A stretch of 64,000 bases of DNA from Limisphaerales bacterium (lineage in GTDB: Bacteria > Verrucomicrobiota > Verrucomicrobiia > Limisphaerales > SIBE01). A program made the position numbers and the translations under genes. The stretch lies in NCBI GenBank assembly GCA_044225505.1, contig JBGAIN010000006.1:1-64000 (forward strand), read 5' to 3'. Shown piece after piece: positions 5,416 to 24,088 of the stretch; the first letter of the stretch is position 1, and every line of letters begins with the position of its first letter. Below the pieces are notes generated by a model. That model saw only the letters and a program-made list of their open reading frames with translations. It was not told where the DNA came from and ran no database searches.

Positions 5416-5859
5416 AGCAGTTGCTTCAATAGTCTCTGACGACTCTCCGGCGATCACACTGAGACGAAAGCAGCCTTGGTGCTTCGCGAGATTACTGAGC
5501 TCGGCGTTCGAGCACCGGTGCTCAGAACCGAGTCTCGTTGATAAGCCGATTAGGTGCAGCTTGTTAGACATTTCAGGACCGTTATCGCTGCGCAGCGTTC
5601 AACCGCTCCTTGAATCAGGGCGTAGTAAGGCTTCCAACGCTCAGATTCATGTAATCTGAACGGCGTGCACGGGAAAATTATTCCACCCATCGGAACTGCA
5701 CTCTACTTGTTTCAAGGTCTTGATTCGGCAGAAGCTCACACGAGGCGGGTCCAAGAGCTTTCTCTGGTTTGATAGAAGAATGGGCGATGCGTGATAAAGA
5801 CAAAACCGATCGACCATCCAAAACATTGGTGGTCTCCGTGCATGGGAAGTGAACGCGTG

Positions 5860-5885
5860 TGTAACTTCACGACTTGGACGGCGGA
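5860..5885 (+). promoter_or_regulatory. Putative ECF-type promoter TGTAAC-N15-GCGGA, copy 1
   Basis: tgtaac ttcacgacttggacg gcgga, ~75 nt upstream of ATG 5960; same motif and spacing at 8825 and 14795. Confidence 0.65.
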
Positions 5886-5959
5886 TGAAGAGGTGCTGCC
5901 GGGTCTGTCTACGATCTCACGGATCTGGACTCGGCGGGAAACCTATATCACCGACGACC

Positions 5960-8650
5960 ATGAAGAACTTGATACGCGCCTTGATCGCTCTCTGTGCCGG
6001 CACGATCGCCGCCCAAGCACATTTGCTCGAACGACGACCGAACGAATCGATCCTCCGCTGCGATGGCGCGCCGATCCGCCTGATCGGCTATGGAGATTAC
6101 GGAATTCTCACCGAGGCAGAGTTCGACTACACACGTTTCTTGGATGAGTTGGCGCGGCGGCGCTTGAACTTCTTCCGTGTTTGGATCAACTACCATTGGA
6201 CGAAGAGCTTATCGCCGTTCCTAAAACTGCCCGGCGGGAAGTTCGATCTGACCCGTTACGATCCCTCCTTTTTTGAGCGGTTGCGCAATCTGGCGCGCGC
6301 CGCGGACGAGCGCGGCATCATCATTCAAGTCTGCCTGTTCGACGGCGTGGGTCAGGAGGCGAACGATCCACTGCGCTGGTCACAGTCCCCGTATCATCCC
6401 GCCAACAACATTAATGGATTGAGTCAGAGCCCGAGCGACTACAGCAAGAAACCGTCGCTGCTTTGGGCTCAAGTTCAGATGCCGCTGGTTGATCGGGTCG
6501 TCTCCGAGCTTGGAAGTCTGGGTAACATCGTCTACGAAGTGTGCAACGAGCCCGCGTCTTCAGATCCCAGAGTTTCGCAAGAGTTCGTTGAATCGGTGGC
6601 GGCAAGGTTGCGTGCTAAACTAGCAGGACGTCCCGGGAGCCAAGTCATTTCTGTCAATGCGGATTCGGGTGCCTTGATTTCGTGGGCCCAAGGCAGCTCG
6701 GCGGTCGATCTCCTTTCGTTCCATGTCAACGACAAGGACGTTAAATTCGATCCGCGCGTGAACCTAAAGAAGCCCGCGATCATTAGCAATGACGGCGATA
6801 GCTCGCAAATGACGGCGGATTTTCAGGGTCTTGCTGCTGGACCGCGTCTGGCGCGCACACAGCAATTACTCGGACGTACCTTCAACACGTCGACCGTGCT
6901 CGGACATTCGCACTTCGAGTTTCTGGACAAGGGAATCAATGGCTCGAGCTGGAAATCGAAGAATTACAACCCACGCGCTACGTTGATCAACCGTTCGATC
7001 CTGGATGTTCTCGCCTCCTGGCTCGTAAGGCCTGGACCCACTGCGCCTGAATCGCCGGTGAACGGTATTCGCCTTAGCCGCCAGGGCCCTGACGTTCGTT
7101 ACGTAGACATGGTGACGGGACGCGTTCGGCTCCGGTTCGATACCTACTACGGCGGCGCGCCTCTGGAGTGGTACGTGAACCAAAACGGCCAAGAGACCGA
7201 GTTGCTTTCGCCGCCGCCGAAGGCCGGAACAGGCTTTCAGCTCGTTTATGAAACAGGTCAGGACGCGACGCAGGCGAGCGCAAATGGCATCACCCCGTTT
7301 CGCATCGCGCGGACGGTCGATCCGGTGGACGTCCTGAACCAGAACAATTACTACTGCCGAGAGGTGTTGCCTGCAGAATGGCCGAGCGGCTGCAATTACT
7401 ACCGGGTCGTTGGCTTTGCGCCTTTCTTTTGGGCGTCGCTCGATGCGATCGACGACGCCTACCCTCCATTCACGCGCTCATTGCCGGTGGGGATTGATCC
7501 GCATACTGAGCAAAGTGGCTGGATGACAAGTCGGCCGGGAATAGCGGATGCCGGCGTGCCTCTTTGGTTTCGGTCGCAGCCGGGCAAACCTGCTGGGATT
7601 GTGATGATCGGCAACGAAATGAAACCGGTGGGAAGTGCATCCTGGAACCGCCGCCTCCTGGAGATCCCGGAGGGCCGCTTCGCTTGCCGAATTCGGGTTG
7701 GCTTTGGCGAAACCACAGCAGGAGCGATTGCTGGAATCATGTTCCGTCGGCAGGTCCCAGTTCGTGAGGATGCAAACATCGATGATGCCTATGCGGCGCC
7801 GGGATACACCTTGTATGTAAACTACGCGGGCGACTTGGAGATCATCCGCGTACAGGGCGGGCAAGATCGAGTTTGGAAAGGCCAGTTGAGCAATGCGTCA
7901 CGAGCGCTGCTTCGGTCCGCGTCCGGGACGCAATTGGAGCTTCGAACACACAACGCCATGCCCGGTCGCGTCGAGATTTACGCGGACCACGTGGCCTTGG
8001 GTGTGTATAACGACCCACAACCTATTCTTGGGCCACATTTTGGGCTGTTCGCTACCGCGCCCGCCAACACGTTCATCCGGTTTGCAGAACGTGAGGTATT
8101 TGACGTGGGGACAGAGTTTCAGTCCACGGTCACCGCGCTGCCTGACGGCGTGCTGGAAACAGAGATGATCCTCCGACCGGCTCCGGGCGTGACTTCGAGC
8201 CGCTCGTACTACCGGGTCGTGAACAGTGCGTTCTTGAGCAGTCGGCCGGACTATCTCGCGCAGATAGCCACTGAATCCCCTGCCGGTCAGATACTAGCCG
8301 CCCGGACGGACGGCATGTTCGCGCCCCGGTTGTTGAGCTCGCAGGGCACGATCGTCTTTGGCCCGCCCGCGCCCGCCGACGCCTACGGCCTGTGGGTGGG
8401 GCAACCAGAGGGAAGTGTTGGACTTTACTGCGTCCCCATGGATGCGCAAATCGACGGAAGACCTGCGCCTGGTCCCCACGCGTTGTTGGGCTCGCATAAT
8501 GTCTGTTCGGGTTGTTCCGCGGTGCCTCATCCGGGTTCTATCTTGCATATCAATGCCTTGGACTTTTCAAACAATGCCACGCCACAGCCGGCGTCCAGCG
8601 TTCTCTTGCGCGCTCGCTGGGCGACACAACGCCTGCAGCCCGTGCGATGA
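5960..8650 (+). CDS. Secreted protein with N-terminal clan-A (GH5-like) TIM barrel and unknown beta-rich C-terminal domains
   Basis: Signal peptide MKNLIRALIALCAG...AQA; motifs FFRVW, FFERLR...ADERGIIIQVCLFD, YEVCNEP, SFH, KKPAII. Confidence 0.6.
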   Translation: MKNLIRALIALCAGTIAAQAHLLERRPNESILRCDGAPIRLIGYGDYGILTEAEFDYTRFLDELARRRLNFFRVWINYHWTKSLSPFLKLPGGKFDLTRYDPSFFERLRNLARAADERGIIIQVCLFDGVGQEANDPLRWSQSPYHPANNINGLSQSPSDYSKKPSLLWAQVQMPLVDRVVSELGSLGNIVYEVCNEPASSDPRVSQEFVESVAARLRAKLAGRPGSQVISVNADSGALISWAQGSSAVDLLSFHVNDKDVKFDPRVNLKKPAIISNDGDSSQMTADFQGLAAGPRLARTQQLLGRTFNTSTVLGHSHFEFLDKGINGSSWKSKNYNPRATLINRSILDVLASWLVRPGPTAPESPVNGIRLSRQGPDVRYVDMVTGRVRLRFDTYYGGAPLEWYVNQNGQETELLSPPPKAGTGFQLVYETGQDATQASANGITPFRIARTVDPVDVLNQNNYYCREVLPAEWPSGCNYYRVVGFAPFFWASLDAIDDAYPPFTRSLPVGIDPHTEQSGWMTSRPGIADAGVPLWFRSQPGKPAGIVMIGNEMKPVGSASWNRRLLEIPEGRFACRIRVGFGETTAGAIAGIMFRRQVPVREDANIDDAYAAPGYTLYVNYAGDLEIIRVQGGQDRVWKGQLSNASRALLRSASGTQLELRTHNAMPGRVEIYADHVALGVYNDPQPILGPHFGLFATAPANTFIRFAEREVFDVGTEFQSTVTALPDGVLETEMILRPAPGVTSSRSYYRVVNSAFLSSRPDYLAQIATESPAGQILAARTDGMFAPRLLSSQGTIVFGPPAPADAYGLWVGQPEGSVGLYCVPMDAQIDGRPAPGPHALLGSHNVCSGCSAVPHPGSILHINALDFSNNATPQPASSVLLRARWATQRLQPVR

Positions 8651-8704
8651 GCCTACCTGCTGAGCCGGACATGTAGAGACAGTCACAATCCGCTTGAGCC
8701 TTGT

Positions 8705-8745
8705 GAGGCTGCGTTCCTGAATGGGAGCCAGCCTCGCTTGCTTTT
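8705..8745 (+). terminator. Possible intrinsic terminator
   Basis: gaggctg...cagcctc stem (8705-8735) followed by T-rich gcttgctttt. Confidence 0.4.
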
Positions 8746-8824
8746 GATTTGATGCATCTGCGCGTGTTTTCGGTTGCCCGAGTCCTTGTAGCGGTTAGGG
8801 ACAGCGATTCATCGCGAACGCGTC

Positions 8825-8850
8825 TGTAACTTTGTCACACCGGTTGCGGA
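8825..8850 (+). promoter_or_regulatory. Putative ECF-type promoter TGTAAC-N15-GCGGA, copy 2
   Basis: tgtaac tttgtcacaccggtt gcgga; preceded by gaacgcgt as in copy 1; upstream of ATG 9025. Confidence 0.65.
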
Positions 8851-9024
8851 GAAGGGAGTGTTCCGGAATGGGGTTCAGCCAGTCACAAACGAGCCGTTCT
8901 CCAAACCGCTGGAATACGCTCCGAGACAGCGTTCCTGGCCAACCCGGCGACAAGTGAAGAGCGTCGGTGGTCAGCCCAATCACGGCGATGGAACTCGGCC
9001 CATCGCCTACTAACAAGCAACAAC

Positions 9025-9999
9025 ATGAACGATAGAACTATCCACAACGCGCGCAGAATCGGACTAGCCGCCCTGTGCGCACTTAACCTAGCCCTCGGCG
9101 CCAACCATGCGACGGCGGGAAACTCAAGCGTCGTTTTAAAGTCAAAAGCGAATGTGCCGTCATCGGAGCTCAAGTGGTGGAAGAGCCAGTCTGGCATTCT
9201 CGTGAACAATATCGACGCCCAGCTGCTCCTCGACTATCTCAATCACGACTCTAAGTGGCAGATAGGGCCACTGCAGCCCCGCGGGTTTAATTTTGTCCGG
9301 GATCAGGCAAGCCTGGAGAAGATTCTGGCGAAGGGAGTTGACGGGAATGCGGCATTTGGGGTGGCCACCAAAATTGACGTATTTCAAGACGGGCGCAGTC
9401 GAGGGAGCCGCTCCCTGACACCGTATGTGTTCGCGTGCCTGCCTTCACGGAATGCAAAAGGATACTCTGCGATTCTCGTCAGCGGACGAGATCTGAACAC
9501 CGGGTATTGGTGGACTCGCGCCATCGTCCTCGAAGGCGAAGACGGCAATCGCCTGAACATTCACGAATACGCCATTTGGGGCGGCAGTGTGACGCGTACG
9601 TCGTACAAAAAGGGCGAAACATTCTTGCTCCAGGCGATCACCACGGCGGCAGGCAAGACCAAGACGGCGTTCGAACGAGAAACGATGCCCCGTATGCAGC
9701 GCTCGCGCGACATGTTTCAGCAGGCCAAAGAGTTCTTGATTAATGACCCCAATTCGTCGGTGAACGTGAATTGCGCGAGTTCGTCTCAATTGGCGACCTC
9801 GAAGCAAGAGCCTTGGTGGAAGAAAATACTCAACCAAGCACTCCACGAGCTATGGAAAGCTTTGCAGGATTACGGCAAAAAGTTGCTGGATGACCTGTGG
9901 GAATACGTAAAAAACAACTTCGGCCCTCTCCGACAGCTGGGTGATTGGTTTTCCAGTTTGCTGGGAGGGATTCGTGATTGGTTTAAAGGACTGTTTTGA
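9025..9999 (+). CDS. Secreted hypothetical protein with Trp-rich amphipathic helical C-terminus
   Basis: Signal peptide ending ATA; C-terminus WWKKILNQALHELWKALQDYGKKLLDDLWEYVK...WFKGLF. Confidence 0.75.
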   Translation: MNDRTIHNARRIGLAALCALNLALGANHATAGNSSVVLKSKANVPSSELKWWKSQSGILVNNIDAQLLLDYLNHDSKWQIGPLQPRGFNFVRDQASLEKILAKGVDGNAAFGVATKIDVFQDGRSRGSRSLTPYVFACLPSRNAKGYSAILVSGRDLNTGYWWTRAIVLEGEDGNRLNIHEYAIWGGSVTRTSYKKGETFLLQAITTAAGKTKTAFERETMPRMQRSRDMFQQAKEFLINDPNSSVNVNCASSSQLATSKQEPWWKKILNQALHELWKALQDYGKKLLDDLWEYVKNNFGPLRQLGDWFSSLLGGIRDWFKGLF

Positions 10000-10009
10000 T
10001 AGGCCAAAT

Positions 10010-10038
10010 GTTCGGAGGGGCGTCGGGCCTCTCCGAAC
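10010..10038 (+). other. Intercistronic hairpin
   Basis: gttcggaggggc-gtcgg-gcctctccgaac, 12-bp stem with one G-U, weak U tract. Confidence 0.45.
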
Positions 10039-10059
10039 CTTCCACTTAATCTGATAGAT

Positions 10060-11142
10060 ATGAAAAATCCACGAAGAAGCAAAGTCGCGGTCGGGTCGTT
10101 CACTTTAATTGCCGCGACCTTGTGGTGGTGGTTTGGCGCATCGCATCCCGGAACGGTTCGAAGCAGTGATCCTGAAGCGAGACGGTCCATTGATCGCACC
10201 GCCGCTTCCCGCATGGAGACGCGATCCAGCGGGATGCTACGTCCTCAACTCAAGGAGGCCGAACCGCGCCGGGCTCGCTTCGAGCAGCTCCAAAATCAAG
10301 TGCAGCAACTTCGCACCAAGCCATTCTGGCAGCGCCGCTCTCTCGACGAGCGCATTGCATTGCGCGCCGCCGACGCCGAACTGCGTGAGCTAATGCACGA
10401 GCTCGGAGTCACTCCGGATCAGATGCCGTCTGGCGTCCTTGCCGACGAATTCGATTTCCTCGACCCGGCCCGTCGTGAGGCGATCGAACGGGCCGTTCCG
10501 GTCGAGTTGCGAGAAGCCATCACCCAATATGAGATTCGGGCGGCTCAAGGCTCGGTGGAGAGCGAGGATTACCATCAGTATGGAGATCATCTAAGGGCCA
10601 AGGAAGACCTGCTCTTGCAGAACCTGACCACCGCCGAGATGAGCGACTATATTGCGCGACATTCCGGAGAAGGAGATGCATTGCGTCTGCACGCCATCGA
10701 CTTGTCCGAGGATGAATTTCGCGCCGTTGCCACCATTGAATGGCAGTTCAATCGCGAGGCGGAGCGCTCGGGGGCGAGCGATCTGGATTCCGTGAGGCGA
10801 ACGCGGGACACAGCCCTGCAACGAGCCTTGGGTGGTCGCCTCGCGCTCTATGAACGGTCCGAAGACCCGACGTATGCCGGGCATATTGACGCGGGTACGG
10901 ACCTAGGCTTACCTCGAGATCTGAGCGACTGGATCTACGACGTCCAGCACTGGGTAGATGAATCCGAGAGCCACATGGCCGATGCTGGGGTACTCTCGGA
11001 GGCCGAACGAACGGAACAATTGCGTTCAATGATGGGTGAGGCGCGTTCGGCCCTGCGGGCTGAGTTGGGCGCGAGCTTTGAGCGTTGGGCAACCACCCCG
11101 AGCGCAGCATGGTTGAGCCGCTTTGACTCCTCCCAAGAATGA
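10060..11142 (+). CDS. N-terminally anchored all-alpha hypothetical protein (lipase-chaperone-like architecture)
   Basis: Single N-terminal hydrophobic segment, low-complexity linker, acidic helical body with repeated (A/E)LG motifs. Confidence 0.65.
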   Translation: MKNPRRSKVAVGSFTLIAATLWWWFGASHPGTVRSSDPEARRSIDRTAASRMETRSSGMLRPQLKEAEPRRARFEQLQNQVQQLRTKPFWQRRSLDERIALRAADAELRELMHELGVTPDQMPSGVLADEFDFLDPARREAIERAVPVELREAITQYEIRAAQGSVESEDYHQYGDHLRAKEDLLLQNLTTAEMSDYIARHSGEGDALRLHAIDLSEDEFRAVATIEWQFNREAERSGASDLDSVRRTRDTALQRALGGRLALYERSEDPTYAGHIDAGTDLGLPRDLSDWIYDVQHWVDESESHMADAGVLSEAERTEQLRSMMGEARSALRAELGASFERWATTPSAAWLSRFDSSQE

Positions 11143-11153
11143 TGCGGGCAGCG

Positions 11154-14100
11154 TCATTGGGCGCGGGCGCGATAGAACCGTTGCTGATCGGCGACACCTT
11201 GCGGGTCGGGCCATTCCAGTCCGGCTGAGGAAAGAGAATTCGTCCAGACTGGGTTCCAGCTCTGTAAATCAGCTGAACTCTGGACGACCACCTGGCCTAT
11301 GGCTGGCCCGCTCACGCGGAGTTGGAAGTTGGCGTCGCGCCCGCGTCCGAAAACCAGGCGCAGTTCGCCATCGTCCGTTACGAGGTTAGCGTTTAGAACG
11401 ATCTGACCTTGCGCGTCGCCAGCCCCCATTACGGCGATGAGATAAGTCGTGTCCCGGTTCACCCGCGCCCGGACTGCGTTGCTGCGACGGGCATCGCCCC
11501 CGCAGCTCTCTGCGACAGGAACTCGGCGCTCCGGATAGGCGTAGAGCGCCATGGCTGTCTCGATGGAGCTCCCTTGGTTATCCAAAACCAAAACGCCATC
11601 GGTGCGGACGCGCAAGCCCAGCCAAAGTGAGCCGCGGCCGATCTTGCACCCATGCAGCGGTTCCCCTGGCTCCGTGCTGGCGCCCGTGTTATCCAGGACA
11701 TGCCGGGCTGGTTCACCCATCGCCACGCTGAGGAACGGGTTACCCAAGGCTTGCAGTCCTGGCCTGGCGCTTGACAAGCCGAGCGCGATCAAAAGGTCGC
11801 CGAGCTTGTCGTAGGACAAGGCTGTATCCGTGGCACTCAATTCGAGGCTGGCGGGCAGGCTATCCACCGTCCGGCCTGCGGCATTACGAACGCGAACCCT
11901 GTAAACCCCTACGTCCGCCGGGCTCGCGGAGGTGCGGGTCAACGTGGGCAACGTTTCGCCAGACAACGGTTGACCGTTGCGGAACCATTCGTAAGTCAAG
12001 TCTGTGCCTTCCGCTTGCACTTGAAAGCTCACGCTTGCTCCAGGCGCCACCGTTTGGCTTTGGGGATGAAAGCGGATGACCGGGATTTGCACTGCGGTGG
12101 TTTCGAGAGACCAGCTCAACACCAGTTGGCCGCTTGCGCCAAGGAATCCATCAACGACGATATGATAAACCGTTCCAGCGACGGCATTGAACTGAAGTTG
12201 GCTCGTCAGGAATCCGCCGCGATCCTCGTCGCTGGCAATCTCTACGAGGCTAGAAATATTCGGTCCCGTGTAGACAGCCAGTAACGTGTCAAACGCGCTG
12301 CCTCGAGTATCAAAGGTGGCGACGCCATCGGCCGGGGCCTGCCAGTCGATCCACATTGACTTGCCTCCAGGTTTTGTGGCGTGAACACCTTCGTTCGCTT
12401 CGCGCGTCGCTTGAAGGTTGTTCGTGCTCCCAGTGCCCGTTGGGCTCGTGATAAGACCACGGTTGGCGAATTGGTCTGTCAGGAGTAAGGCCGGAAGTAA
12501 AACCTGGAGAACCGCTGGATCGCTTTCTACCGCGCCAGCGTCGTTGGCTACGGCCAAACTGTAGCTACCACCATCCCCGGCTTGTACGCTGCTCAAACTT
12601 AGCGTCGGATTAGTCTCGCCCTCGAGATTGACACCGTTCTTGCGCCACTGATAGCGCAAGGTCGGCGAGCCGACCGCTCCGGCACGAAATTCGGCGGCGG
12701 TCCCGGGAGCGGCCTGCATCGGTTCGGGTTGGGCTGAAATCAACGGCGGACTCGGCAGCGCTACCAAGACCGCGCGGGAGAATTCGGAGGTGCTACCGTC
12801 CGGCGCTGTCGCTGTCGCCGTGACCCAATTACCCGCGGACAATTCGACTTTAGACTGAAACTCGAAAGTATCACCGTTGGCAGTATCCACACCGAGTTCA
12901 CCCAGGTAAACCTGGCCTTCGCCAAAGCCCGTCGTGTCGCGATTAGTGCTGGCGAAGAACTCGAGGTGGTAAGTTAGGCCTGCCGTGCTTACCATGCGGC
13001 CGGTAATGATGCTTGGGCGCGCGGCGTAAGCGCCGCTGAGCGTTGGGAAATTCTGCAGGCCGTTCGGGCCGCTGTCGGCATCCTCGGAGTCGTTTTGTGT
13101 GACACCAGCGGGTCCGAGATCAATCCCCAGGCCCGTATTCGAATAAATAGCATTCTGGGCGATGCGGTGTCCTTTGCCGCCGATGATTCTTACCCCTGCG
13201 CCTTGATTAAAGGCAATGCGGTTTGCGGTCCCGATGAAATTGTTGGTGTTCGCATCGCTGCCTACGAAAATGGCGTCGGACGTGTTTCCCAGCGGCAGAA
13301 TACCGGTGACATCGATTCCGAAATCGTTCCCGGTCACGACATTACCGCCTAGAGTATTCCCGAGGACCAGCCCTGGGCCATTATTTCCGGAAATCTGGTT
13401 TGATCGAATGATATTGTTGCGCGCGCTGCTCTGGATGACTACGCCTTTCTGCCCATTCGGAACCCGAGATGATCCGGATGAATCTGTGCCGATCCTGTTA
13501 CTTTCCAGGGTGTTTTCAAACGCCGTATTATCGATGCTGACGCCACCCTCAACGTTGCCGGAGACGACGTTGCTCTGGGCGAGGTTGAGTGAAGCACCTC
13601 CACCGATGCGCAATCCCAGATTCTCCAGACCGCCAGCCAGTCCATTGCCAAGTGCACTTTGTCCGGAACTACTGATGCCGATCCAGTTGCCGATGACTCG
13701 ATTCGAGATCGAACCGTTCCCCCAAATCATCAGACCATCGTTATCGTTCCCGGAAATGATGTTTCTCGCTTCGGGTTCGATTCCTCCGATGGTATTCCAT
13801 TTGCAATCTCGAAGCGTCACGGCCGCATTAAGCCGGTTCGTTGTTGCGGAGCTGTTGGGAAGCCGTTCGGTTCCCGTCGCACCCACACCGATCAGGTTGC
13901 CTGCCACACGGTTGGAGACTGCAGACGACGATTGTATGCTTATAGCAATACTCTTGTTTCCAGAAATTAGATTGCCACTGCCTGGAAAGATTCCACCGAT
14001 GTCATTATCCGACGCTAACAAGTTGAGTTCTACACCAGTATCGTTCCCCAAGGGTTTCGTTCCGGATGGGTCCGTGCCGATGTAGTTACCGATAATCGTA

Positions 14101-14794: not shown

Positions 14795-14820
14795 TGTAAC
14801 CTTGGGCGGCTGACTGCGGA
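14795..14820 (+). promoter_or_regulatory. Putative ECF-type promoter TGTAAC-N15-GCGGA, copy 3
   Basis: tgtaac cttgggcggctgact gcgga, ~60 nt upstream of ATG 14879. Confidence 0.65.
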
Positions 14821-14878: not shown

Positions 14879-16390
14879 ATGAAATCAATTCGCTATCTAC
14901 TCCTTACGGCCATGGCTATTTCGCCACTGGTTCGCGGCCAAGTCAGCACCAGCTTCGACTCGTATCCTTCCCTGGACGGTGAGTCCGTACGGGGCTCCGG
15001 TGAAGCTGCCTACGCCAAACCAGCCTGGTGGTCATGGACAGCCCCCGCGACCGGAAAGGTCGTCATTAGTACGGAAGGCAGTGATTTCAACACTTACCTG
15101 GGTGTTTACATCGGTGACTCCACCGACCATCTCGATGCAGTCGCTGCCAACGAGGACACAGAGGGAATGCCTTGGTCGCAGGTCGAATTCCAGGCAAATC
15201 AGGGCACGGTGTATCGCCTTGGGGTATTCGCTCGACTCGGTTTTGCCGGCCAAGCCGTTGCGAATGTGCAATTATCCCCAAATCGATCCCCAGGATCGGT
15301 GGTCGGAGGGGACGATTTCCAAAACCGCCGGGAGTTGAGTGGCACGAACGCGTTGGGGCTGGCCAACAACTTCTACGCGACGCGTCAGAACGCCGAACCT
15401 CCGAGTGGTGGCCGGGGTGAAACCGTTTGGTGGACTTGGACCGCCCCGGCCGATGGCGTGGTGGAAATTGACACTGCTGGCAGCGAGGTGAACACGGTAT
15501 TGAAGGTGTTCGTCGGTGACCAGTTGAACACCTTGCAGGCCATCCGTTGGAACAACGACGTTCCGGGAGCGTCGCACTCGCGAGTTCTATTCCAGGCCCA
15601 GAAAGGGATCACGTATCAAATCTGCGTCGATACGCCTTCGATCACTTTCCCCGGCGGCAATATTCTGCTGCACGTTGCTTTGACCCAGAACGATCTTCCA
15701 GGTGGCGCGCCTGGAATGGACAATTTCAACGCCCGCGGCGAGCTCGTCGGAGCTGAGGCGATTGGCTGCGGTAATATTGATGGCGCCACGTTTCAACCGG
15801 GCGAACCGATCATTGGTGACCGGGAAACCATCTGGTGGCAATGGACCGCTCCAGTTGATGGGCAGGTGGTGATTGATACCGTGGGCAGCGAGTGTGATAC
15901 CTTGCTTGCGATCTATACCGGTGATCAAATCGAGGCCCTTCGCCCCGTGACATCGAACGACAATGCAGACGGCGAATGGACTTCGCGCGTGCAATTTGCG
16001 GCGCGGCGCAATCAACGTTACCAGATTGCAGTGGCCTCGGCACGGGCCATCCGTGTGGACATCGGAAATGTGGTGCTCAATGTGCACCAGCAAGTCGCAC
16101 CTGACGAAGCGCTGCAGGTGTTTCGAGCCGTTGAAGTGGAATTGTTCGCCCGTAAAGGTGTCCGGTACCAGCTGCAGCGGTCCAAAGACTTCATCCTCTG
16201 GACGAACATCGGTGGGCCGTTCGTCGGCCAGGATCGCGTCATGAAATGCCTCGTCTCGATTCGTGAAACCGACGGCAACTTCTTTCGGGCAAAGGAGCTT
16301 GCAACGACTGACATGACTGAGGGCGAATTACCGTCGTCGTCCACGCCCGATTCCTTCGGAAATCTGCCGACGGTTTTCCCTGGCGAATAG
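14879..16390 (+). CDS. Secreted protein with three tandem PPC-like beta-sandwich repeats
   Basis: Signal peptide MKSIRYLLL; three WWxWTAPxxGxVxIxTxGSxxxTxLxxxxGD repeats; C-terminal SKDFILW...FFR. Confidence 0.8.
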   Translation: MKSIRYLLLTAMAISPLVRGQVSTSFDSYPSLDGESVRGSGEAAYAKPAWWSWTAPATGKVVISTEGSDFNTYLGVYIGDSTDHLDAVAANEDTEGMPWSQVEFQANQGTVYRLGVFARLGFAGQAVANVQLSPNRSPGSVVGGDDFQNRRELSGTNALGLANNFYATRQNAEPPSGGRGETVWWTWTAPADGVVEIDTAGSEVNTVLKVFVGDQLNTLQAIRWNNDVPGASHSRVLFQAQKGITYQICVDTPSITFPGGNILLHVALTQNDLPGGAPGMDNFNARGELVGAEAIGCGNIDGATFQPGEPIIGDRETIWWQWTAPVDGQVVIDTVGSECDTLLAIYTGDQIEALRPVTSNDNADGEWTSRVQFAARRNQRYQIAVASARAIRVDIGNVVLNVHQQVAPDEALQVFRAVEVELFARKGVRYQLQRSKDFILWTNIGGPFVGQDRVMKCLVSIRETDGNFFRAKELATTDMTEGELPSSSTPDSFGNLPTVFPGE

Positions 16391-16432: not shown

Positions 16433-16463
16433 TTCGGATGCCGGCGACGGTTCGGCATCCGAA
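16433..16463 (+). terminator. Perfect 11-bp hairpin after the PPC-repeat gene
   Basis: ttcggatgccg-gcgacggtt-cggcatccgaa. Confidence 0.45.
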
Positions 16464-16600
16464 CACGCTTTGAGAGAGAGCGTGAATTTGCTTTAGTTGC
16501 TTGCTGCTCGTCGGACGCTCCGTTATTAACGCCGCACTCCGGTATGCTTCAGGGTCGACGAAAACAGTCCGCACGCCGTGGCGTTTTTCCGACGAGTCAC

Positions 16601-19600
16601 ATGCTCGTCCGGCTGTGCGTTTGGATGCTGTTGACCATGGGGGCTCGACTCGACGCCGCGGAGACTGCGGAACAGGTAGTACTGATGAGTAGCGATGGGA
16701 CGGTGGAAGTGTTGCCGCAAGGCGCGGTAATCTGGCAGGCCGCTCGCGTGAATGCCCCGTTACACCCGGGCGATCGGGTGCGCACCGGTGAAAACAGCCG
16801 GGCCATGTTGCGATATGGCGAACGCACTCAGGTCCAACTTGGAGAGTTTAGCGAGACAGTCATTCTCCTACCGACGCAAGGACAGGGTTTTTTGAACATG
16901 ATCAAAGGCTGGTTACACTTGCTCCATCGTGGCCGACCTGGGCGCTATGAACTCCAGATCCCAACTGCTCAAGCGATCATCCTCGGAACAGAGTTTACCG
17001 TTTACGTTGCCCCTAACGGGTCCACTCGGATCGACCTTTTAGAAGGAGACGTCCAACTCGGCAATGCGTATGGAAAGATTCGCTTGAGCTCGGGGACAAG
17101 TGCGCAGGTCGATGCCGAGACGGCGCCGAGACCGATCCAGTTCGCTGGACGAATGCGGGCAGTGGAATGGTGCCTTTACTATCCGGCTATTCTTGATCTG
17201 AGCGAGCTGGACGAACTTCTCGAGCGACATCCGGAACTGAGGCCTTCCGTAGAGCATTATCGTGTTGGTGATGCGTTGGCCGCGATTCATTCGTTTCCTT
17301 GGGATGCGCCAAGTCAAAGCGCAGCCGAACGGCTCTACCGCGCTGCGCTCCGCGTGGCCGCTGGGCACTCTGGCAAAGCCATGGACGAGTTAGGATTGCT
17401 AGAAACGGGCGCTGCCGCACGCGCCGGCCGCTTTCTTGGTCCAATTAATGGCTTGAAGCTTCTTGTCGCCACCGTGCAATCAGAAGATCGCCCAGCCGCG
17501 CTTTCCGATCGTGCGTTAAGGCAGTCCACAACATATCTCCTCGCGGAATCTTTCTACCATCAGGCGCATCTGAATTTCGACGCGGCACGCGCCTCAGTGC
17601 GAACGGCACTCGCCAAGAATCCGAACTTCGCGGCGGCTTGGGCGCGTCTGGCAGAACTCGAGTTTTGCGTCGGGAGAATCCCTTCGGCACGCGCAGCCGT
17701 GCGTGAAGCACTGCGGCTCGCTCCGCGAAACTCGGGCGCACTCGTGACGTCTGGTTTCCTAGCTGGAGCCAGGAGTCAAACAGCACTCGCCCAAACGCAA
17801 TTCGAAGAAGCGATTCAGTTGGATCCGCGAAACGGCAACGCCTGGTTGGGACATGGATTAATGCTCATCAAGTCCGGCCGCCGCGCGGAGGGGGTTAAAG
17901 ACTTGCAGGCAGCCGCCGCTTTGGAACCGCTACGCAGCTTGTTCCGAAGTTACTTGGGAAAAGGCTATGCTGATCAGGAGGAGTGGGCTAACGCCGAGCG
18001 CGAATTGACACAAGCCGAAACCCTGGATCCACAAGATCCAACGCCATGGCTTTACTCTGCTTTGCTGCATCGGCAAGCGAACCAGCTCAACCGCGCGCTT
18101 GAGGATTTGGAGCGTTCCCGAGCGCTTAACCAGAATCGTCAGATATTTCGATCCCAGTTACTGCTCGATCAGGACGCATCCGTTCGCGGAACGGATCTCG
18201 CCGGGATTTACCAGGATGTCGGACTATTTGACCGCAGCCTGGCGGAGGCAAGCCAGGCATTGACGATCGACTACGCCAACTATTCCGCACACTTATTGTT
18301 GGCGGAAAGTTACAACGCTTGGCGCGATCCGAATCAGGTAAATTTACGTTACGAAACGCCGGCAGTGCATGAGTTTTTATTGGCGAACCTTCTCGCACCG
18401 CCTGGGGCATTGACCTTCTCGCCCCAAATCTCGCAAAACGAATACACCCGCTTTTTCGATAGAAACCGCTTGGGAATCAATACTCGCACGGAGTATCTAA
18501 GCTCCGGCACCTGGCGCCAGGAAAGCGCTCAGTACGGGGTCTTTGACAGTTCCGCGTATGCTGTGGAGTCAATCTATTATTCACGCAATGGGCAGCGAGC
18601 TAACAACGACTTCGAGGCATGGGCCTTGAACTTCCGGCTCAAACAGCAGCTCACATTACAGGACAGCGTCTATCTGCAGGTAACCCGCTACGAAGCCGAT
18701 GGCGGCGATGTTCGTCCTCTGTTTCAGGAAGGATTAGCAAGTCCATCTCTGCGCGTTTCGGAACGACAAGACCCGCTGTTTCTGGTCGGATATAACCACG
18801 CCTGGTCCGCTGCGGCACACACACTGCTCTTGTTTGGTCACCTCGAAGACCGAGTCACCCGGCGCGACCGGAACGCCCAAGTGGACGTGCTGGACCGCGA
18901 CCCTTTCGACCCCGCGGCAGGAATTCGCAACGTGGACCGTATCCCCGTAACGCTCGACTACTCCGGCTGGAATCGATTGAACTCGATTGAGGTCCAGCAG
19001 GTGCAATCGTTCGGGAATCATTCGTTTACCGCTGGCACCGCGCTACAGCATCAGGCGTTATCCGCGAGTGGCCAGGTTCGCGACGGCGCCTCGTCTTTGG
19101 GAACACCGATTGACAGCCGTGACGATGGTGAGGCCGAGGGCAGCCGAATCGGCACCTATGCATTCTGGCGATGGCACATGACTCCGCGCTTCCATACAGT
19201 TGCTGGTGTTTCTTTCGATTGGCTCCAGTTTCCGGAGAACCTCGGAAGCGTCCCATTTTCGACCAAGCTGCGTGAGGACGCGAGCTTTTCCCCGAAAGCC
19301 GGCCTTTTGTGGAGCGTCACCGACGACTTGCTTTGGCGGTTGGCCGGAGCGCAGTCTCTAAGCGGGATTGGTGTTGAGCAAAGTCTTGGGTTGGAACCCG
19401 TCGACGTGGCGGGTTTCTTAGATAATACCCGCAATTTAATTCCTGAGTCGGTTGTCGGCTCGACCTCTGCCCTGGAGACGCGGGTGGCAGGATCCGCCAT
19501 GGATTGGCGGCCACTTCCGCATACCTATTTGAGCATTGCGGTGGAGGTCCGCACTGCGACTGGCGATCGATCTCTGCCCGCCTATGAGGAGGTCATTCCC

Positions 19601-20119
19601 GTCGGAGGCTTGGGAACTCCCTCACTCGTGCCCGTGTCGTTTCGGGATCGCATTCGATTTGAAGAACAGATCGTTCGCGCGTCGGCTAGCCAGCTGCTAG
19701 GCAGTAGCGGCTCGATTGGAATCGATTATCGTTGGAGTCGCGCGCGCCTTGCTTGGGAATATCCCGATACCGCAAGCGACGCGTCCTTTCCCGGAACAGA
19801 GTCGCGAAAGAACCACCGGGAATCGTCCCTGCACCGCTTCGGGGCCTGGTTTCAGTATCAGAATGCACAAGGTTGGTTTGGTCGAGTCCAGCCCGCCTGG
19901 TACTTCCACACCAATCGGGACTACGTCCCTGCAATAGGTAGCGATACGTTCTGGCAGATTGACGTCTGGGCGGGCCGGCGGCTTTTCCACCGCCACTTAG
20001 AGCTTGCGGTCGGTGTCTTGAACTTGACGGGCGACTCGTTTCACTTGAATCCGATGGTGCTTCAAACGGATTTGCCCAAGGAGCGAACCTTCGCCATGAT
20101 CTGCCGATTTAATTTCTAA
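16601..20119 (+). CDS. FecR domain + TPR repeats + TonB-dependent-receptor-like outer membrane beta-barrel
   Basis: FecR motifs GDRVRTGENSRA and TAQAIILGTEF; TPR region; alternating beta-strands; NLT motif and terminal Phe (MICRFNF). Start could be 16544. Confidence 0.85.
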   Translation: MLVRLCVWMLLTMGARLDAAETAEQVVLMSSDGTVEVLPQGAVIWQAARVNAPLHPGDRVRTGENSRAMLRYGERTQVQLGEFSETVILLPTQGQGFLNMIKGWLHLLHRGRPGRYELQIPTAQAIILGTEFTVYVAPNGSTRIDLLEGDVQLGNAYGKIRLSSGTSAQVDAETAPRPIQFAGRMRAVEWCLYYPAILDLSELDELLERHPELRPSVEHYRVGDALAAIHSFPWDAPSQSAAERLYRAALRVAAGHSGKAMDELGLLETGAAARAGRFLGPINGLKLLVATVQSEDRPAALSDRALRQSTTYLLAESFYHQAHLNFDAARASVRTALAKNPNFAAAWARLAELEFCVGRIPSARAAVREALRLAPRNSGALVTSGFLAGARSQTALAQTQFEEAIQLDPRNGNAWLGHGLMLIKSGRRAEGVKDLQAAAALEPLRSLFRSYLGKGYADQEEWANAERELTQAETLDPQDPTPWLYSALLHRQANQLNRALEDLERSRALNQNRQIFRSQLLLDQDASVRGTDLAGIYQDVGLFDRSLAEASQALTIDYANYSAHLLLAESYNAWRDPNQVNLRYETPAVHEFLLANLLAPPGALTFSPQISQNEYTRFFDRNRLGINTRTEYLSSGTWRQESAQYGVFDSSAYAVESIYYSRNGQRANNDFEAWALNFRLKQQLTLQDSVYLQVTRYEADGGDVRPLFQEGLASPSLRVSERQDPLFLVGYNHAWSAAAHTLLLFGHLEDRVTRRDRNAQVDVLDRDPFDPAAGIRNVDRIPVTLDYSGWNRLNSIEVQQVQSFGNHSFTAGTALQHQALSASGQVRDGASSLGTPIDSRDDGEAEGSRIGTYAFWRWHMTPRFHTVAGVSFDWLQFPENLGSVPFSTKLREDASFSPKAGLLWSVTDDLLWRLAGAQSLSGIGVEQSLGLEPVDVAGFLDNTRNLIPESVVGSTSALETRVAGSAMDWRPLPHTYLSIAVEVRTATGDRSLPAYEEVIPVGGLGTPSLVPVSFRDRIRFEEQIVRASASQLLGSSGSIGIDYRWSRARLAWEYPDTASDASFPGTESRKNHRESSLHRFGAWFQYQNAQGWFGRVQPAWYFHTNRDYVPAIGSDTFWQIDVWAGRRLFHRHLELAVGVLNLTGDSFHLNPMVLQTDLPKERTFAMICRFNF

Positions 20120-20121
20120 AG

Positions 20122-22095
20122 GTGCGGCCTGAGACACAACTTCGGCGTGGAGTGCAGCGGGGTCTCCGTTGGTTCGTGCCGAGTCTGTCTATCGCTATCG
20201 CTTGGATTGCGCTCCTTTCTCCTTTGGGTCGGTGGTCAGACAATATCAGCTACGACATTCTCTTTGCGTTCTACGGCCCTCAACATCGGGACGATGCGGC
20301 GTTGGTCTATATGGATTACGAATCCGCACGTCAGTTGGGTCAGCCAGATTCCGGCCGTTACGATCGCGCGGTGCATGCTAAACTGATCGATAAACTTTCA
20401 GGTCTGGGAGCTAAGGCAATCGTTTTCGATGCGCTTTTCGAGCATCCGGACACCAACAATCCGGCATCTGATCAAGCGCTTATCGACGCCGCTCAACGAC
20501 AGAGGTTCGTCTTCGCCGGGGCCGTTCAGCGCCGAGGCAATTACTCGCTATTACCCGCGGCCAAGGTTGTTCCGCCATTTCCGGAACTGCGGCGCGCGTT
20601 GGCGGGATATGGATTAGTTGAGGGCAATTTGGAAGGGGAACCAATTCGGGACATGACAACGGACCTGGCCGCGGTGTCCAGCCTGGCGAACGTCGTCGCG
20701 GATGCCTTTTCTCCAATCCCTGTGATACTCCAACGAGAGCGATCACCCCGGCTGAACTACTATGGCGCTCCGTTGCAGGCGATTCCTGGATACCGCTACT
20801 TCGACGTACTAACAAACCGGCTCGAACTCCGTGGCGCCTTCTCAAATCGCGTCGTTTTTGTGGGTCAGAATTCGGTGGAGAATCTGGATTCGTCGCCTGA
20901 TCGCGATCTGCATCCCACGCCGTTTACTCGGTGGACGGGCTTGAGAGCTCCAGGTGTCGAGATTAATGCGACCGCGTTCCTGAACCTGGTCCACCATGAG
21001 TGGCTTCGCCGAGGGCATCCACTCGCCGAGGCCATTGCGTTGGTGGTCACCGGCTTGGTCACGGGTCTGGCCCCGGCACCGCGGCGATTCAAAACGGGAG
21101 TTCTTTTACTTGGGCTGTCAATTTGCTCGATAGCTTGGGTGGCGTGGATTCTGGCCTGGCGATGGCATATCTGGGCGCCCTGGCTAATTCCCATTGTCTT
21201 TCAAGTTCCGGTGGGAGTCGCCGCTCTGTTATTACAGCGATCGCGCGAGGGGCAGTCCGATGTGGTGCCCTTGCGTCGGGAGTTTAAAACAGAACCGTGG
21301 TCAATTCCCGACCACGAGTTGGTGCGAAAAATTGGTACTGGTGGCTATGGCGACGTCTGGCTCGCACGCAACGCGCTGGGCGGTTTCCATGCCGTCAAGA
21401 TCGTAGAGCGGAGTCGGTTTTCCGGGCCGGATCCATACGAGCGCGAGTTTAACGGCGTCCGAAATTTCATGCCAATCTCGCGCGGCCATCCGGGATGGGT
21501 GCCGATACTTCATGTAGGGCGAAATGATCTGGCTAGCGGCTACTTCTATTACGTGATGGAACTTGCCGATTCGAAGGCGGAAAAGCTCGACGTCGAAACC
21601 TACGAACCGAAGACGCTGTCTAGCGCGGACTATGGTCAGAGTCCTGCCTCACCCTTACAAATCGCCCGGATTGGCCTCGAGTTGGCGGAAGCACTCCAAT
21701 ACCTCCACCAACACGGCTTGGTCCATCGGGACGTGAAACCAAGCAACGTTCTTTTCTGGCGGGGAAGTCCGCGTTTTGCCGACATTGGTCTTGTCACACA
21801 ATTCGCGAGAACTGGCCGAGACGTTAGTTTTGTGGGAACAGCCGGGTTTGTGGCACCGGAGGGTCCCGGAACGCCTGGCGGGGATGTATTTGGGTTAGGT
21901 AAGTTACTGCAATCTCTCCAAACTGATCGCCTCGTGTCGGATAGCCAGCACTTGGACGAAACATCGGCTCGCCAGCAACAGCGGCTTAGCACGATTTTGC
22001 AGAAAGCAACCGCTATGGATCCTGATCGCCGATACGCCTCCGCTGCTGCCCTGGCGCAGAGTCTTAACGAGTTACTCAAGGATTCTCTTTTCTGA
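20122..22095 (+). CDS. CHASE2 sensor domain + 3 TM helices + Ser/Thr protein kinase
   Basis: RAVHAKLIDKL...AKAIVFDALF, DLHPTPF, PGVEINAT (CHASE2); kinase IGTGGYG, AVK, HRDVKPSN, DIG, APE; 2 nt after the FecR gene. Confidence 0.9.
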   Translation: MRPETQLRRGVQRGLRWFVPSLSIAIAWIALLSPLGRWSDNISYDILFAFYGPQHRDDAALVYMDYESARQLGQPDSGRYDRAVHAKLIDKLSGLGAKAIVFDALFEHPDTNNPASDQALIDAAQRQRFVFAGAVQRRGNYSLLPAAKVVPPFPELRRALAGYGLVEGNLEGEPIRDMTTDLAAVSSLANVVADAFSPIPVILQRERSPRLNYYGAPLQAIPGYRYFDVLTNRLELRGAFSNRVVFVGQNSVENLDSSPDRDLHPTPFTRWTGLRAPGVEINATAFLNLVHHEWLRRGHPLAEAIALVVTGLVTGLAPAPRRFKTGVLLLGLSICSIAWVAWILAWRWHIWAPWLIPIVFQVPVGVAALLLQRSREGQSDVVPLRREFKTEPWSIPDHELVRKIGTGGYGDVWLARNALGGFHAVKIVERSRFSGPDPYEREFNGVRNFMPISRGHPGWVPILHVGRNDLASGYFYYVMELADSKAEKLDVETYEPKTLSSADYGQSPASPLQIARIGLELAEALQYLHQHGLVHRDVKPSNVLFWRGSPRFADIGLVTQFARTGRDVSFVGTAGFVAPEGPGTPGGDVFGLGKLLQSLQTDRLVSDSQHLDETSARQQQRLSTILQKATAMDPDRRYASAAALAQSLNELLKDSLF

Positions 22096-23146
22096 ACGAC
22101 CAGCGCCGCAACCGGCCGATCCAGCCACCCCAACGCGAGGTGCGCGCTCCCTGTTGGCGGAAACGTTCCAAGTCATCTGCAAGAGCATTCGCCGTCGGGA
22201 ACCGCGATTCAGGTGCGCGTTCGAGACATCGGTGGCAGATAGCTTCTAATGTTGGATGAACTCGGGGATTGGTCGTACGGAGTGGGACGACCGCCTCCGT
22301 AAGAACCCGCCTTATTTGATCTTCTGCAGGCCCTCGCCCGAAGGCGGGAACCCCACTCAGCGCTTCGTAGAGAATTGCACCGAGGGAGAAGATATCCGTT
22401 GCCGGTTGCAGTGTTTTTGAACCGGACGCTTGCTCTGGCGAAAAGTATCCCGGCGTGCCGACGATGCACATCTCAGGCGTCAAGCTTCGGACGCTAGTAG
22501 TGACCTTGGCCAGTCCAAAATCGACCACAAAGGGCCATTCCGACCGGTCGAGCAAAATATTTCCCGGCGTCAAGTCTCGATGCAGAACGCCCCTCTCGTG
22601 GGCGTGATGGACGCCGCGAGCAGCTAGCGATACGATGCGGCAGACCTCGAGCATCCATTCAGCTTCCTGGCGCTTGGCATCAGGCCTTTTGGGCTGACTA
22701 ACACGGGTGGTCCAGAAGTCGGTCAGTCGCTTACCCAGCGAAGGACCCGCAACCAATTTCATGCTGTAAAAGATCGTGGCGTTTTCGCTGCCTATTTCAT
22801 AGATCGGAATGATGTGCGGATGGTCCAGCTTGGCGATCGTTTCCGCTTCCTGGCGGAACCGGCGCAGCGGTATGAGCGCATCCAGGGAGTACGCCGAGAC
22901 GATTTTCAAGGCGACATCTCGACCGAGACTCAACTGTCGCGCATGATAGACAATAGCCATGCCGCCCCGGCCCAGTTCCCTCATGATCTCGTAATCCTTG
23001 AGTTGCTTGGGTATTCCGTCCGATTCTGAGGCCGAAGCTTCGTCTGTCTCCGGGGTGGAAGTCGCGTCTTGCAGAAGGCAAGTGGGGCACAGACCCAGCG
23101 TCATTTTTGTGCCGAGCACCGAGCCACATTTCGGACATCGCTCCAT
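22076..23146 (-). CDS. Cytoplasmic Ser/Thr protein kinase with N-terminal Cys motif
   Basis: CPKCG...LCPTCLL, LGRGGM, VALK, HRDLTPGN, DFGL, GTPGYFSPE; no C-terminal sensor. Confidence 0.9.
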   Translation of the reverse strand: MERCPKCGSVLGTKMTLGLCPTCLLQDATSTPETDEASASESDGIPKQLKDYEIMRELGRGGMAIVYHARQLSLGRDVALKIVSAYSLDALIPLRRFRQEAETIAKLDHPHIIPIYEIGSENATIFYSMKLVAGPSLGKRLTDFWTTRVSQPKRPDAKRQEAEWMLEVCRIVSLAARGVHHAHERGVLHRDLTPGNILLDRSEWPFVVDFGLAKVTTSVRSLTPEMCIVGTPGYFSPEQASGSKTLQPATDIFSLGAILYEALSGVPAFGRGPAEDQIRRVLTEAVVPLRTTNPRVHPTLEAICHRCLERAPESRFPTANALADDLERFRQQGARTSRWGGWIGRLRRWSFRKENP

Positions 23147-23164
23147 ATCCGACAACGTCGACCA

Positions 23165-23881
23165 TCAATTGCTCAAAGCCTCGGTCAACGCGCGCAGCTC
23201 TGCTTCGACGTCTGCACTCGCCATGACCGTGTTGCTTACCACCTGTCGCAGCAGTTCGCCAAAGCGACGGCGCATTCGTAAGACGACGACTTTGAGGGCA
23301 CCCTCGGTGGTGCCAACGCTCGCTGCAATCTCCGCGTAGGATCGATCCAGGGCATCTCCTTGAAGGACGCCCTTCACGGCGTCGAACACAGCACGTTGGC
23401 CTTTGGCATCATATTCGTGCGCCAGGCATTGGAGCGTTCGGGAAAGCGCCTCCAAGGCGCACTGCCGGTCGAACACGCCCTCCGGTGTACGGTGGTCTGC
23501 AGGTTCGTCCCTATAACGGTTCTCCGCGTCCGTCGCATCGAAAGAAATTGTGATCTGCCCTCCACCTCGTTTCTGGGCGCGATCGCGTCGTTTGGAATCT
23601 TTCCAGAAATCCTCCAGGCAACCGATCAGAAAAGAGCGAATGCGACCGCGAGCGGGGTCCATTCTGGCAAAGAGACGCTTTCGGACGACCTGCTCAAAAA
23701 AGCCCAGCGTCAGATCTTCTGCATCGTGCGGTGGGACTTGTCTGCGACGCAAGTAGGCATAGACCGGGCTGACATAAAGGCTGCACAACTCCGCCAGCGC
23801 GTCCGACTCCTGCGTGCCTCCCTGGCGGATGCGCATCACTAACGAAACGCGGCTGGCTGGCATCTCACTCGTGGATTTCAT
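23165..23881 (-). CDS. ECF sigma-70 factor of the kinase-associated type
   Basis: ALAELCSLY.SPVYAYLRR, DAEDLT, RGRIRSFL, AQKRGGG, SYAEIAASVG; directly upstream of the kinase. Upstream part of the 555-aa ORF is antisense lpdA. Confidence 0.88.
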   Translation of the reverse strand: MKSTSEMPASRVSLVMRIRQGGTQESDALAELCSLYVSPVYAYLRRRQVPPHDAEDLTLGFFEQVVRKRLFARMDPARGRIRSFLIGCLEDFWKDSKRRDRAQKRGGGQITISFDATDAENRYRDEPADHRTPEGVFDRQCALEALSRTLQCLAHEYDAKGQRAVFDAVKGVLQGDALDRSYAEIAASVGTTEGALKVVVLRMRRRFGELLRQVVSNTVMASADVEAELRALTEALSN

Positions 23882-24088
23882 CGTGAGCCAAAAGGTAAAG
23901 AGAACTAGCTCGCCTAAAGGAGATTCACTCAGAATCATCCTAGGTATTGGATTGAAGCCCGTCCTGGGACAGATGTCCAGCGGGCAATCGTTCTCGCTCC
24001 TGTCGCTCAGCTTGTCGCAACCACGCTGCATTCGCGCACAACGTTCTTTCGTGCCAAGAGCCTTTAATGCGTTTAGAATGCTTTCACC

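Follow-up and report, generated by a model that had tools for sequence, protein, structure and literature searches.

We analysed a 64,000-nucleotide window (the whole stretch of DNA examined, on contig JBGAIN010000006.1 of a Limisphaerales bacterium) in which an 18.7-kb insertion at 5416..24088 separates sucB, ending at 5415, from lpdA, starting at 24089. This island holds nine genes: four for signalling proteins, namely a FecR-TPR-barrel outer-membrane receptor, a CHASE2 Ser/Thr kinase, a second kinase (K2) and an extracytoplasmic function (ECF) sigma factor, and five whose products carry N-terminal signal or anchor-like segments, as judged by eye from the translations. The sucB–lpdA gap is ~20-130 nucleotides in relatives G138, G362 and G183, the three of five genomes searched that gave a sucB match (the other two gave none); G-numbers denote genomes, L-numbers sampled loci and G000 the window's own 9.04-Mb genome. 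Contigs of two other studies span 5344-8672, 18570-23848 and 22514-24800 with no indels listed, and because these contigs are independent and bridge the region, the layout is not an assembly error. GC content at third codon positions is 0.59-0.67 in the island and 0.62-0.66 in the flanks, giving no compositional sign of recent transfer, and the 64-kb window contains no tRNA. Searches found no close relative of the island; named relatives were Verrucomicrobiota. Pattern-based locus searches with the receptor in genome contigs and with the sigma in metagenome contigs came back empty, an alignment of the CHASE2 kinase run against genome contigs returned mostly unrelated kinases, and scans for sigma-70 promoters and terminators stayed at chance level.

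The receptor gene (16544..20119, + strand) encodes an NsrA-like protein of 1191 amino acids, assigned from Pfam and a structure model. Pfam finds FecR at residues 77-171, TPRs and a weak TonB-receptor barrel, and the model (28-row alignment, pLDDT 83) resolves a FecR beta domain at 45-198, TPR helices at 225-633 and a 22-stranded barrel at 642-1190, with Phe as the last residue. TonB-dependent receptors are the best solved folds for this model, at 10-14% identity; no Plug domain was found by Pfam, and in the model helices precede the barrel. Of 401 genomes of the order, 213 contain homologues. A profile built from 122 of these homologues matches a 1221-amino-acid protein of S. meliloti GR4 (E 4e-44), strongly over FecR and TPR and weakly over the barrel. 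The gene for that protein, on a 1.7-Mb replicon, is followed by a CHASE2 cyclase whose CHASE2-transmembrane part aligns to the window's kinase family at 99.8% probability, and we infer that this pair, unannotated in its record, is NsrA-CyaK. According to the available text of two reports, perception of protein-like signals requires NsrA together with CyaK or CyaD1/D2 (PMC7529298, PMC13001267), and residues 600-1200 of NsrA form a C-terminal outer-membrane beta-barrel (PMC7529298). Both partners of that pair, a ~1200-amino-acid FecR-TPR-barrel receptor and an adjoining CHASE2 membrane protein, are homologous to those of the window, the latter in its CHASE2-transmembrane part. The output there is cyclic AMP (cAMP) and Clr, whereas here it is a Hanks kinase and an ECF sigma, accompanied by a PPC/Ig surface protein.

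Two nucleotides downstream of the receptor begins the gene for an inner-membrane CHASE2 receptor Ser/Thr kinase (20122..22095, + strand), with CHASE2 at residues 26-314, Pkinase at 400-651, hydrophobic segments at 18, 301, 327 and 353, and no cyclase domain by Pfam. Its kinase motifs are complete (GTGGYG, AVK, HRDVKPSN, DIG, APE), and K426, H535, R536, D537, K539, N542 and D554 are invariant across 29 rows. CHASE2 kinases form a single clade, A (41 rows, support 100), and those of this family are present in 83 of the 401 genomes of the order, about a fifth; a phylum-wide sample of 401 gave full-length matches only in G000 and one other member of the order, plus one kinase-only match. Five loci (L142:2782-5697, L253, L256, L259 and L260) encode CHASE2 Ser/Thr kinases of ~940-990 amino acids that carry a class III cyclase-like domain at the N terminus, confirmed by Pfam for L142, and L094:14724-18568(-), upstream of a W-family sigma (see below) and a receptor, is an apparent fusion, with one break, of cyclase-like, kinase, CHASE2 and kinase parts. 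The original prediction, made from the letters alone, had proposed a cascade without anti-sigma factor or cAMP: the island indeed holds neither an anti-sigma gene nor a cyclase gene, but the absence of cAMP does not hold for the family at large, some members of which fuse a cyclase-like domain before the CHASE2 kinase.

The sigma factor gene (23165..23881, - strand) is followed by K2 (22076..23155, - strand; start TTG 23155 or ATG 23146), and the ends of K2 and the CHASE2 kinase gene overlap by 20 nucleotides, tail to tail. The sigma belongs to an ECF62-like, kinase-partnered family, here called S. G000 has 38 copies of this family, and a kinase lies within 1.5 kb of 31 of them. The same genome carries five sigmas of a second family, W, and ~68 kinase hits. 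Residues 53-56 of the window sigma are an intact DAED; column 55 in 51 rows is E in 23, Q in 16, R in 5, K in 4, A in 2 and another residue in one. Near the N terminus, S and W sigmas have in common a T-x-x-S/T motif, Ser10/Ser13 in the window sigma, whose first position is Thr or Ser in all 51 S rows (Ser10 here) and Thr in all 24 W rows. From this conservation we predict that the T/S-x-x-S/T motif is a phosphorylation site; Ser83, Ser113, Thr132, Thr192 and Thr218 are further conserved candidates.

Linkage across the order was assessed in two samples. The first comprised 121 loci, taken as up to 20 kb around 120 of the 150 listed of 331 receptor matches, leaving out those with little flank, plus the second receptor of G000; the second comprised 32 of 70 not-yet-seen CHASE2-kinase loci with 2.5-kb flanks, and is by construction enriched for unlinked genes. 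A CHASE2 gene was present in 80 of the 121 receptor loci, encoding 37 cyclases, 34 Ser/Thr kinases, 6 PAS histidine kinases and 3 proteins cut off, with class set by motif and Pfam agreeing in 10 of 10 checked. An ECF sigma was in view in 28 of the 34 Ser/Thr-kinase loci, mostly within 200 nucleotides of the receptor or kinase, versus 1 of the 43 cyclase or histidine-kinase loci, which bears out the proposed linkage of receptor, CHASE2 kinase and ECF sigma. Two distinct sigma families are used, W in 19 loci and S, that of the window, in 9. Besides the window, S sigmas stand beside CHASE2 kinases in at least three separate receptor clades, in 13 loci over both samples, none with a kinase between them, and all seven genomes that have a receptor and a W sigma with no CHASE2 gene in view encode a CHASE2 kinase elsewhere, although they represent three families only.

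A PPC/Ig surface gene accompanies the receptor in 50 of the 121 loci, in 41 of them within 700 nucleotides, and does so beside every output type: 17 of 34 kinase, 15 of 37 cyclase and 5 of 6 histidine-kinase loci, and 13 of 41 loci without CHASE2. G000 has only seven such genes in 9 Mb, three of them at its two receptor loci. The fourth conserved gene of the module is the PPC/Ig surface protein, not K2, so the four-gene synteny envisaged by the original prediction stands for receptor, CHASE2 kinase and sigma and falls for the second kinase. Three further arrangements involve this receptor family. The second FecR-TPR-barrel gene of G000 (L001; G000:C222:28662-32291 with its neighbours) lies tail to tail with a PPC/Ig surface gene and is flanked by full-length sigma–kinase pairs, with no CHASE2 gene in view; at L048, two tandem receptor genes share one surface gene and one CHASE2 cyclase; and at L071, L074, L092, L104, L113 and L138 the receptor family is paired with CHASE2-PAS hybrid histidine kinases (four Pfam-checked).

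Three exact copies of TGTAAC-N15-GCGGA lie on the + strand of the island: at 5860..5885, as the predicted ECF promoter of the gene for an 896-amino-acid secreted protein, at 8825..8850, and at 14795..14820, upstream of the PPC gene that precedes the receptor. The window would be expected to hold 0.02 copies, none of 100 shuffles matched it, and the 9.04-Mb genome has four in all; as the motif had been read off the same sites, an extra null was run on random sets of five upstream regions each: of 300 sets, one had an 11-base two-block word common to at least three regions. With its spacer of 15 the TGTAAC motif shows no genome-wide enrichment beyond the island, and the exact motif is not enriched in the other loci. 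Its TGTAA..GCGG variant is equally common in controls (2/10 S, 6/26 W and 5/43 cyclase or histidine-kinase loci), so only the -35 box generalises. Of 11 surface genes in S-type loci, 7 have TGTAA close to their start, versus 1 of 6 and 4 of 21 elsewhere, and the box recurs with other partners: TGTAA..TTCCGG in 2/10 S, 3/26 W and 0/43 cyclase or histidine-kinase loci, TGTAA-N14-17-TTCTTC at nine sites in four loci of one S-linked clade and in none of 69 other loci, and TGTAAG..TTCCGG before the surface gene in another S-linked clade (L060, L105, L062 and L125).

For W sigmas, an intergenic word search gave TGAAAG-N16-CGTA in 14/26 W, 0/9 S and 2/43 cyclase or histidine-kinase loci, often before secreted proteins. 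This W promoter also lies beside four of six fetched orphan kinases, from genomes in which receptor and W sigma are apart from the kinase, and at nine sites in 7 of the 32 second-sample loci (217 kb) versus two sites in 783 kb of cyclase or histidine-kinase loci; there is none in the island. TGTAAC is a predicted -35 element of several ECF groups. Judged by these motifs, the window's promoter-like element combines the -35 box common to its sigma family with a -10 box of its own, and secreted-protein genes are preceded by a different promoter-like motif in each sigma lineage. As anticipated, secreted outputs with a sigma-type promoter in front of them thus recur in other loci, and in the island itself the nine genes, the 2-nucleotide spacing of receptor and CHASE2 kinase and the three motif copies are all present as the original prediction described them.

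Taken together, we put at roughly 0.6 the probability that these genes form a three-gene relay, in which the receptor passes a surface cue to the CHASE2 kinase, the sigma is phosphorylated and the secreted-protein genes are transcribed from TGTAAC-N15-GCGGA. The domain anatomy, the homology of the receptor and the CHASE2-transmembrane part to the Sinorhizobium pair, and the conserved linkage are the observed part of this reading. If NsrA-CyaK is a guide, the barrel loops would bind a ligand that is probably a protein or polymer and that the PPC/Ig surface protein may hold, and the periplasmic TPR/FecR arm would contact CHASE2. Synteny suggests that the CHASE2 kinase would here take the place of the normal activator of this sigma family, a single-pass WD40/TPR kinase. 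It would phosphorylate the sigma outside DAED, with Ser10/Ser13 the best predicted candidate, and K2 would be what is left of the receptor kinase that once served the sigma, with an accessory part at most.

Several observations weigh against this reading, and we set them out here with the rival explanations that they bear on. The contrast in sigma linkage (28/34 versus 1/43) has a Fisher p of 4e-14, a value that overstates the case because the cyclase and histidine-kinase receptors fall mostly in one 52-row clade and represent few independent events. In the second sample a receptor was found in 12 of 32 loci and an intact kinase-type sigma in 5 (four S, one W), alongside one broken W sigma and one unrelated ECF; 17 had neither receptor nor sigma within 2.5 kb. 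The module is therefore often split, and the description of the island as self-contained fits this locus and not the family at large. Within G000, clade A kinases pair by default with W sigmas, five of which lie elsewhere in the genome, and the promoter motifs were found post hoc. A rival view is that two unconnected modules are involved, the sigma working with K2 alone or unregulated while the receptor and CHASE2 kinase act in trans on one of the five W sigmas of this genome or on other substrates. The pairing of clade A kinases with W sigmas in G000, the many CHASE2 kinases unlinked from a sigma, the convergent orientation with its 20-nucleotide overlap, and the resemblance of the window sigma to those of ordinary sigma–kinase pairs fit this view. 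We consider it improbable, because the 13 other loci join an S sigma to a CHASE2 kinase with no kinase between, two of them in the same convergent layout, and because the island lacks a W promoter but has S-type TGTAA boxes, one of them upstream of the PPC gene preceding the receptor.

K2 itself is a zinc-finger Hanks kinase of a single-pass clade, B, with an N-terminal CxxC...CxxC. It ends exactly at the juxtamembrane W-RRxP motif at which its paralogues enter the membrane, and has no transmembrane segment or sensor, whereas all 11 paralogues shown continue into a hydrophobic stretch past that point; no remnant follows because the CHASE2 gene begins there. Its catalytic loop, HRDLTPGN, keeps Asp and Asn and has lost Lys, and its best homologues by score are 35-48% identical. 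Some findings speak for a role of K2: its frame is intact and unchanged in other assemblies, and it misses 9 of 80 conserved columns, being no more diverged than the other three signalling genes. Together with the clean end at W-RRxP, rather than at a random point, and with the same-family locus L094, where a clade-B-like kinase and a CHASE2 kinase seemingly form one chain with a break beside a sigma and a receptor, they favour the two-kinase relay put forward by the original prediction. There the CHASE2 kinase would phosphorylate soluble K2, and K2, made sigma-specific by its zinc finger, would phosphorylate the sigma or serve as an obligatory adaptor. We think this about as doubtful as the unconnected modules: a separate kinase lies between the CHASE2 kinase and a sigma in none of the 66 other loci, L139 and L261 reproduce the window's convergent layout without K2, and among 119 near-length K2 homologues 116 have HRDLK, two HRDLN, one HRDIK and none Thr, with no conserved membrane-free class of zinc-finger kinases among them. 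K2, truncated as it is, is probably dispensable. A plausible history starts from a receptor beside a sigma–kinase pair, as at L001, L091 and L125, after which the CHASE2 kinase would have taken over and K2 lost its sensor.

The intact DAED is a further difficulty for the relay. In EcfP/PknT of Vibrio and EcfK/PknS of Xanthomonas, phosphorylation where STTA replaces DAED is reported to activate the sigma (PMC8999054, PMC8103513), and for EcfK activation by phosphorylation in the linker is reported as well (PMC13147305). These ECF43 systems resemble the island in having an ECF sigma beside a membrane Hanks kinase with no anti-sigma gene; they carry STTA with a phospho-Thr, whereas the window sigma keeps D53-A54-E55-D56, and the available text of these papers describes no outer-membrane receptor or CHASE2 for them (PMC8999054, PMC8103513, PMC13147305). 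With DAED intact, the EcfP/EcfK switch is not transferable, so the analogy on which the original prediction leaned gives way at the mechanistic site, and ECF43 was rejected as the identity of the system. The window sigma also misses 7 of 38 conserved columns (median 2), with two conserved Trp lost, and in quick and FastTree trees, which are poorly resolved, it sits on a long branch apart from the sigmas that follow CHASE2 kinases elsewhere, with its own kinase at the +1 position. The four signalling proteins all rank with the most divergent members of their families, which, with the lost Trp residues and the truncation of K2, would suit a signalling block that is decaying and no longer works. 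That seems very unlikely, given that all frames are open, a second strain differs by substitutions with no indels, and the three exact promoter copies persist.

An alternative of a different kind concerns the barrel, which might be mainly an exporter or anchor for PPC/Ig surface proteins, with the CHASE2 kinase monitoring export rather than an outside ligand. The missing Plug match and the helices preceding the barrel would fit such a role, as would the frequency of PPC/Ig genes near receptors of every output type, and of none, set against their rarity in G000. We regard it as unlikely on two counts: the Sinorhizobium homologue is, in the available text, reported as a signal receptor (PMC7529298), and in G000 a C-terminal tail like that of the island's surface protein is present on at least 53 proteins, against only two barrels. 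That tail, SxD/NLxxW...FYR, is a possible sorting signal. The surface protein itself (11154..14714, - strand) combines beta-helix, Ig and PPC-like domains with an FYR-type tail and belongs to the PPC/Ig family linked to the receptor. The gene at 14879..16390 (+ strand), which immediately precedes that of the receptor, encodes a secreted protein with three PPC-like repeats (Pfam PPC; DNA repeat family D1). It is a conserved partner, of the family counted above in 50 of the 121 receptor loci, and a candidate co-receptor, ligand presenter or output.

FecA-FecR-FecI signalling joins a plugged TonB-dependent transporter to a separate inner-membrane FecR anti-sigma; the island differs from it on each point, with no Plug match, FecR fused to the barrel and no anti-sigma gene. 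ECF267 of Sorangium and Chondromyces is similar in placing a FecR and TPR protein and protein kinases near an ECF sigma, but the FecR-TPR protein of that group is a putative anti-sigma, with no FecA-like transporter, whereas here it is an outer-membrane barrel and is joined by a CHASE2 kinase; it was rejected as the identity because the +1 gene is a kinase and the FecR-TPR protein an outer-membrane barrel. On the sigma side, the kinase-linked groups ECF62 and ECF59/217 are described for Planctomycetes only, with a single-pass kinase that often has WD40 repeats (PMC7826278). The description of ECF62 gives its +1 kinase an N-terminal zinc finger, as in K2 and its paralogues, and one transmembrane helix, before which K2 stops; the supplement text, as far as available, contains no CHASE2 (PMC7826278). 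CHASE2 has otherwise been reported in a Burkholderia LysM-FecR pairing with a CHASE2 histidine kinase (PMC5192318), in Campylobacterota cyclase clusters (PMC9239204) and in cyanobacterial Ser/Thr kinases (PMC2176072), and in the available text of these papers none of the cases brings a barrel receptor together with a CHASE2 Ser/Thr kinase and an ECF sigma. A full-text literature search, which covered few subscription papers, found no published description of the joined module. Each half is thus known (NsrA-CyaK, FecR-CHASE2 pairs, CHASE2 Ser/Thr kinases and kinase-linked ECF groups), and the joined module was not found in print; the island can be likened to NsrA-CyaK at the envelope and to PknT-EcfP in the cytoplasm without belonging to either.

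The remaining island genes lie at its sucB end, on the + strand. The first (5960..8650) encodes the secreted 896-amino-acid protein, a predicted output with a DUF6298 match below cut-off; its N-terminal part is probably glycoside-hydrolase-like and has three paralogues in G000, its C-terminal part has no family assignment, and the protein has no sequence match in the PDB. The second (9025..9999), also a predicted output, encodes a secreted protein of 324 amino acids with an amphipathic-looking C-terminal tail. It belongs to a small unnamed family (nine matches at E<=0.001, itself included; about six relatives), with no Pfam or NCBIfam match and no relative that reaches the Pfam cut-off. Sixty nucleotides further on and probably co-transcribed with it, a third gene (10060..11142) encodes a 360-amino-acid protein with an N-terminal anchor-like segment, whose Atlas look-alikes, Verrucomicrobiota hypotheticals scoring <0.9, are a lead only. 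The segment 9025-11142 thus pairs a secreted protein with a Trp-rich amphipathic-looking tail and a membrane-anchored protein, and one may speculate that the former is an effector and the latter its chaperone or immunity partner. Homologues of all three genes are absent from the 121 receptor loci, which marks them as local cargo, and none of the three could be placed in a named family.

Other loci have secreted genes of their own. Small secreted proteins (~240-265 amino acids) stand behind TGAAAG-N16-CGTA at L081, L087, L093, L100, L114, L127, L129, L140 and L146, and are likely a W-sigma regulon; a related protein at L135 has no Pfam match. At L036, L043 and L050, a gene with polyglycine-hydrolase-like repeat and beta-lactamase-family (serine hydrolase) parts and other secreted genes lie behind TGTAAT..TTCTTCA beside the module. 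Elsewhere in the window, 26998-29646(-), read from translations only, holds a second ECF sigma gene and, after it, genes for two membrane proteins, one small and anti-sigma-like and the other large, apparently an ordinary anti-sigma-controlled arrangement.

In the available text of the respective reports, the kinase-linked ECF groups other than ECF43 are described as untested predictions (PMC8999054), and the sensing target of CHASE2 is unknown (PMC5192318). The module ties both gaps to one testable chain, naming a receptor, a kinase, a sigma, a candidate phospho-site and lineage-specific promoters, and it reveals that, in a single order, one family of outer-membrane receptors is coupled to cytoplasmic outputs of three kinds. 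If the relay is real, it would be a route from the outside to the gene without TonB, proteolysis or an anti-sigma. A bolder and distinctly tentative picture is of a TonB-independent, anti-sigma-free pathway across two membranes, in which a PPC/Ig protein and a plug-less barrel would capture the ligand, the CHASE2 kinase would fire and a DAED-intact sigma would be switched on by N-terminal Thr/Ser phosphorylation, with one receptor family rewired among cAMP, histidine-kinase and Ser/Thr-kinase outputs and, at this locus, a membrane-free kinase adding a cytoplasmic relay step. If that were true, it would constitute a second, undescribed mode of activating sigma factors by phosphorylation, and the K2 step would resemble eukaryotic pairs of receptor and cytoplasmic kinase.

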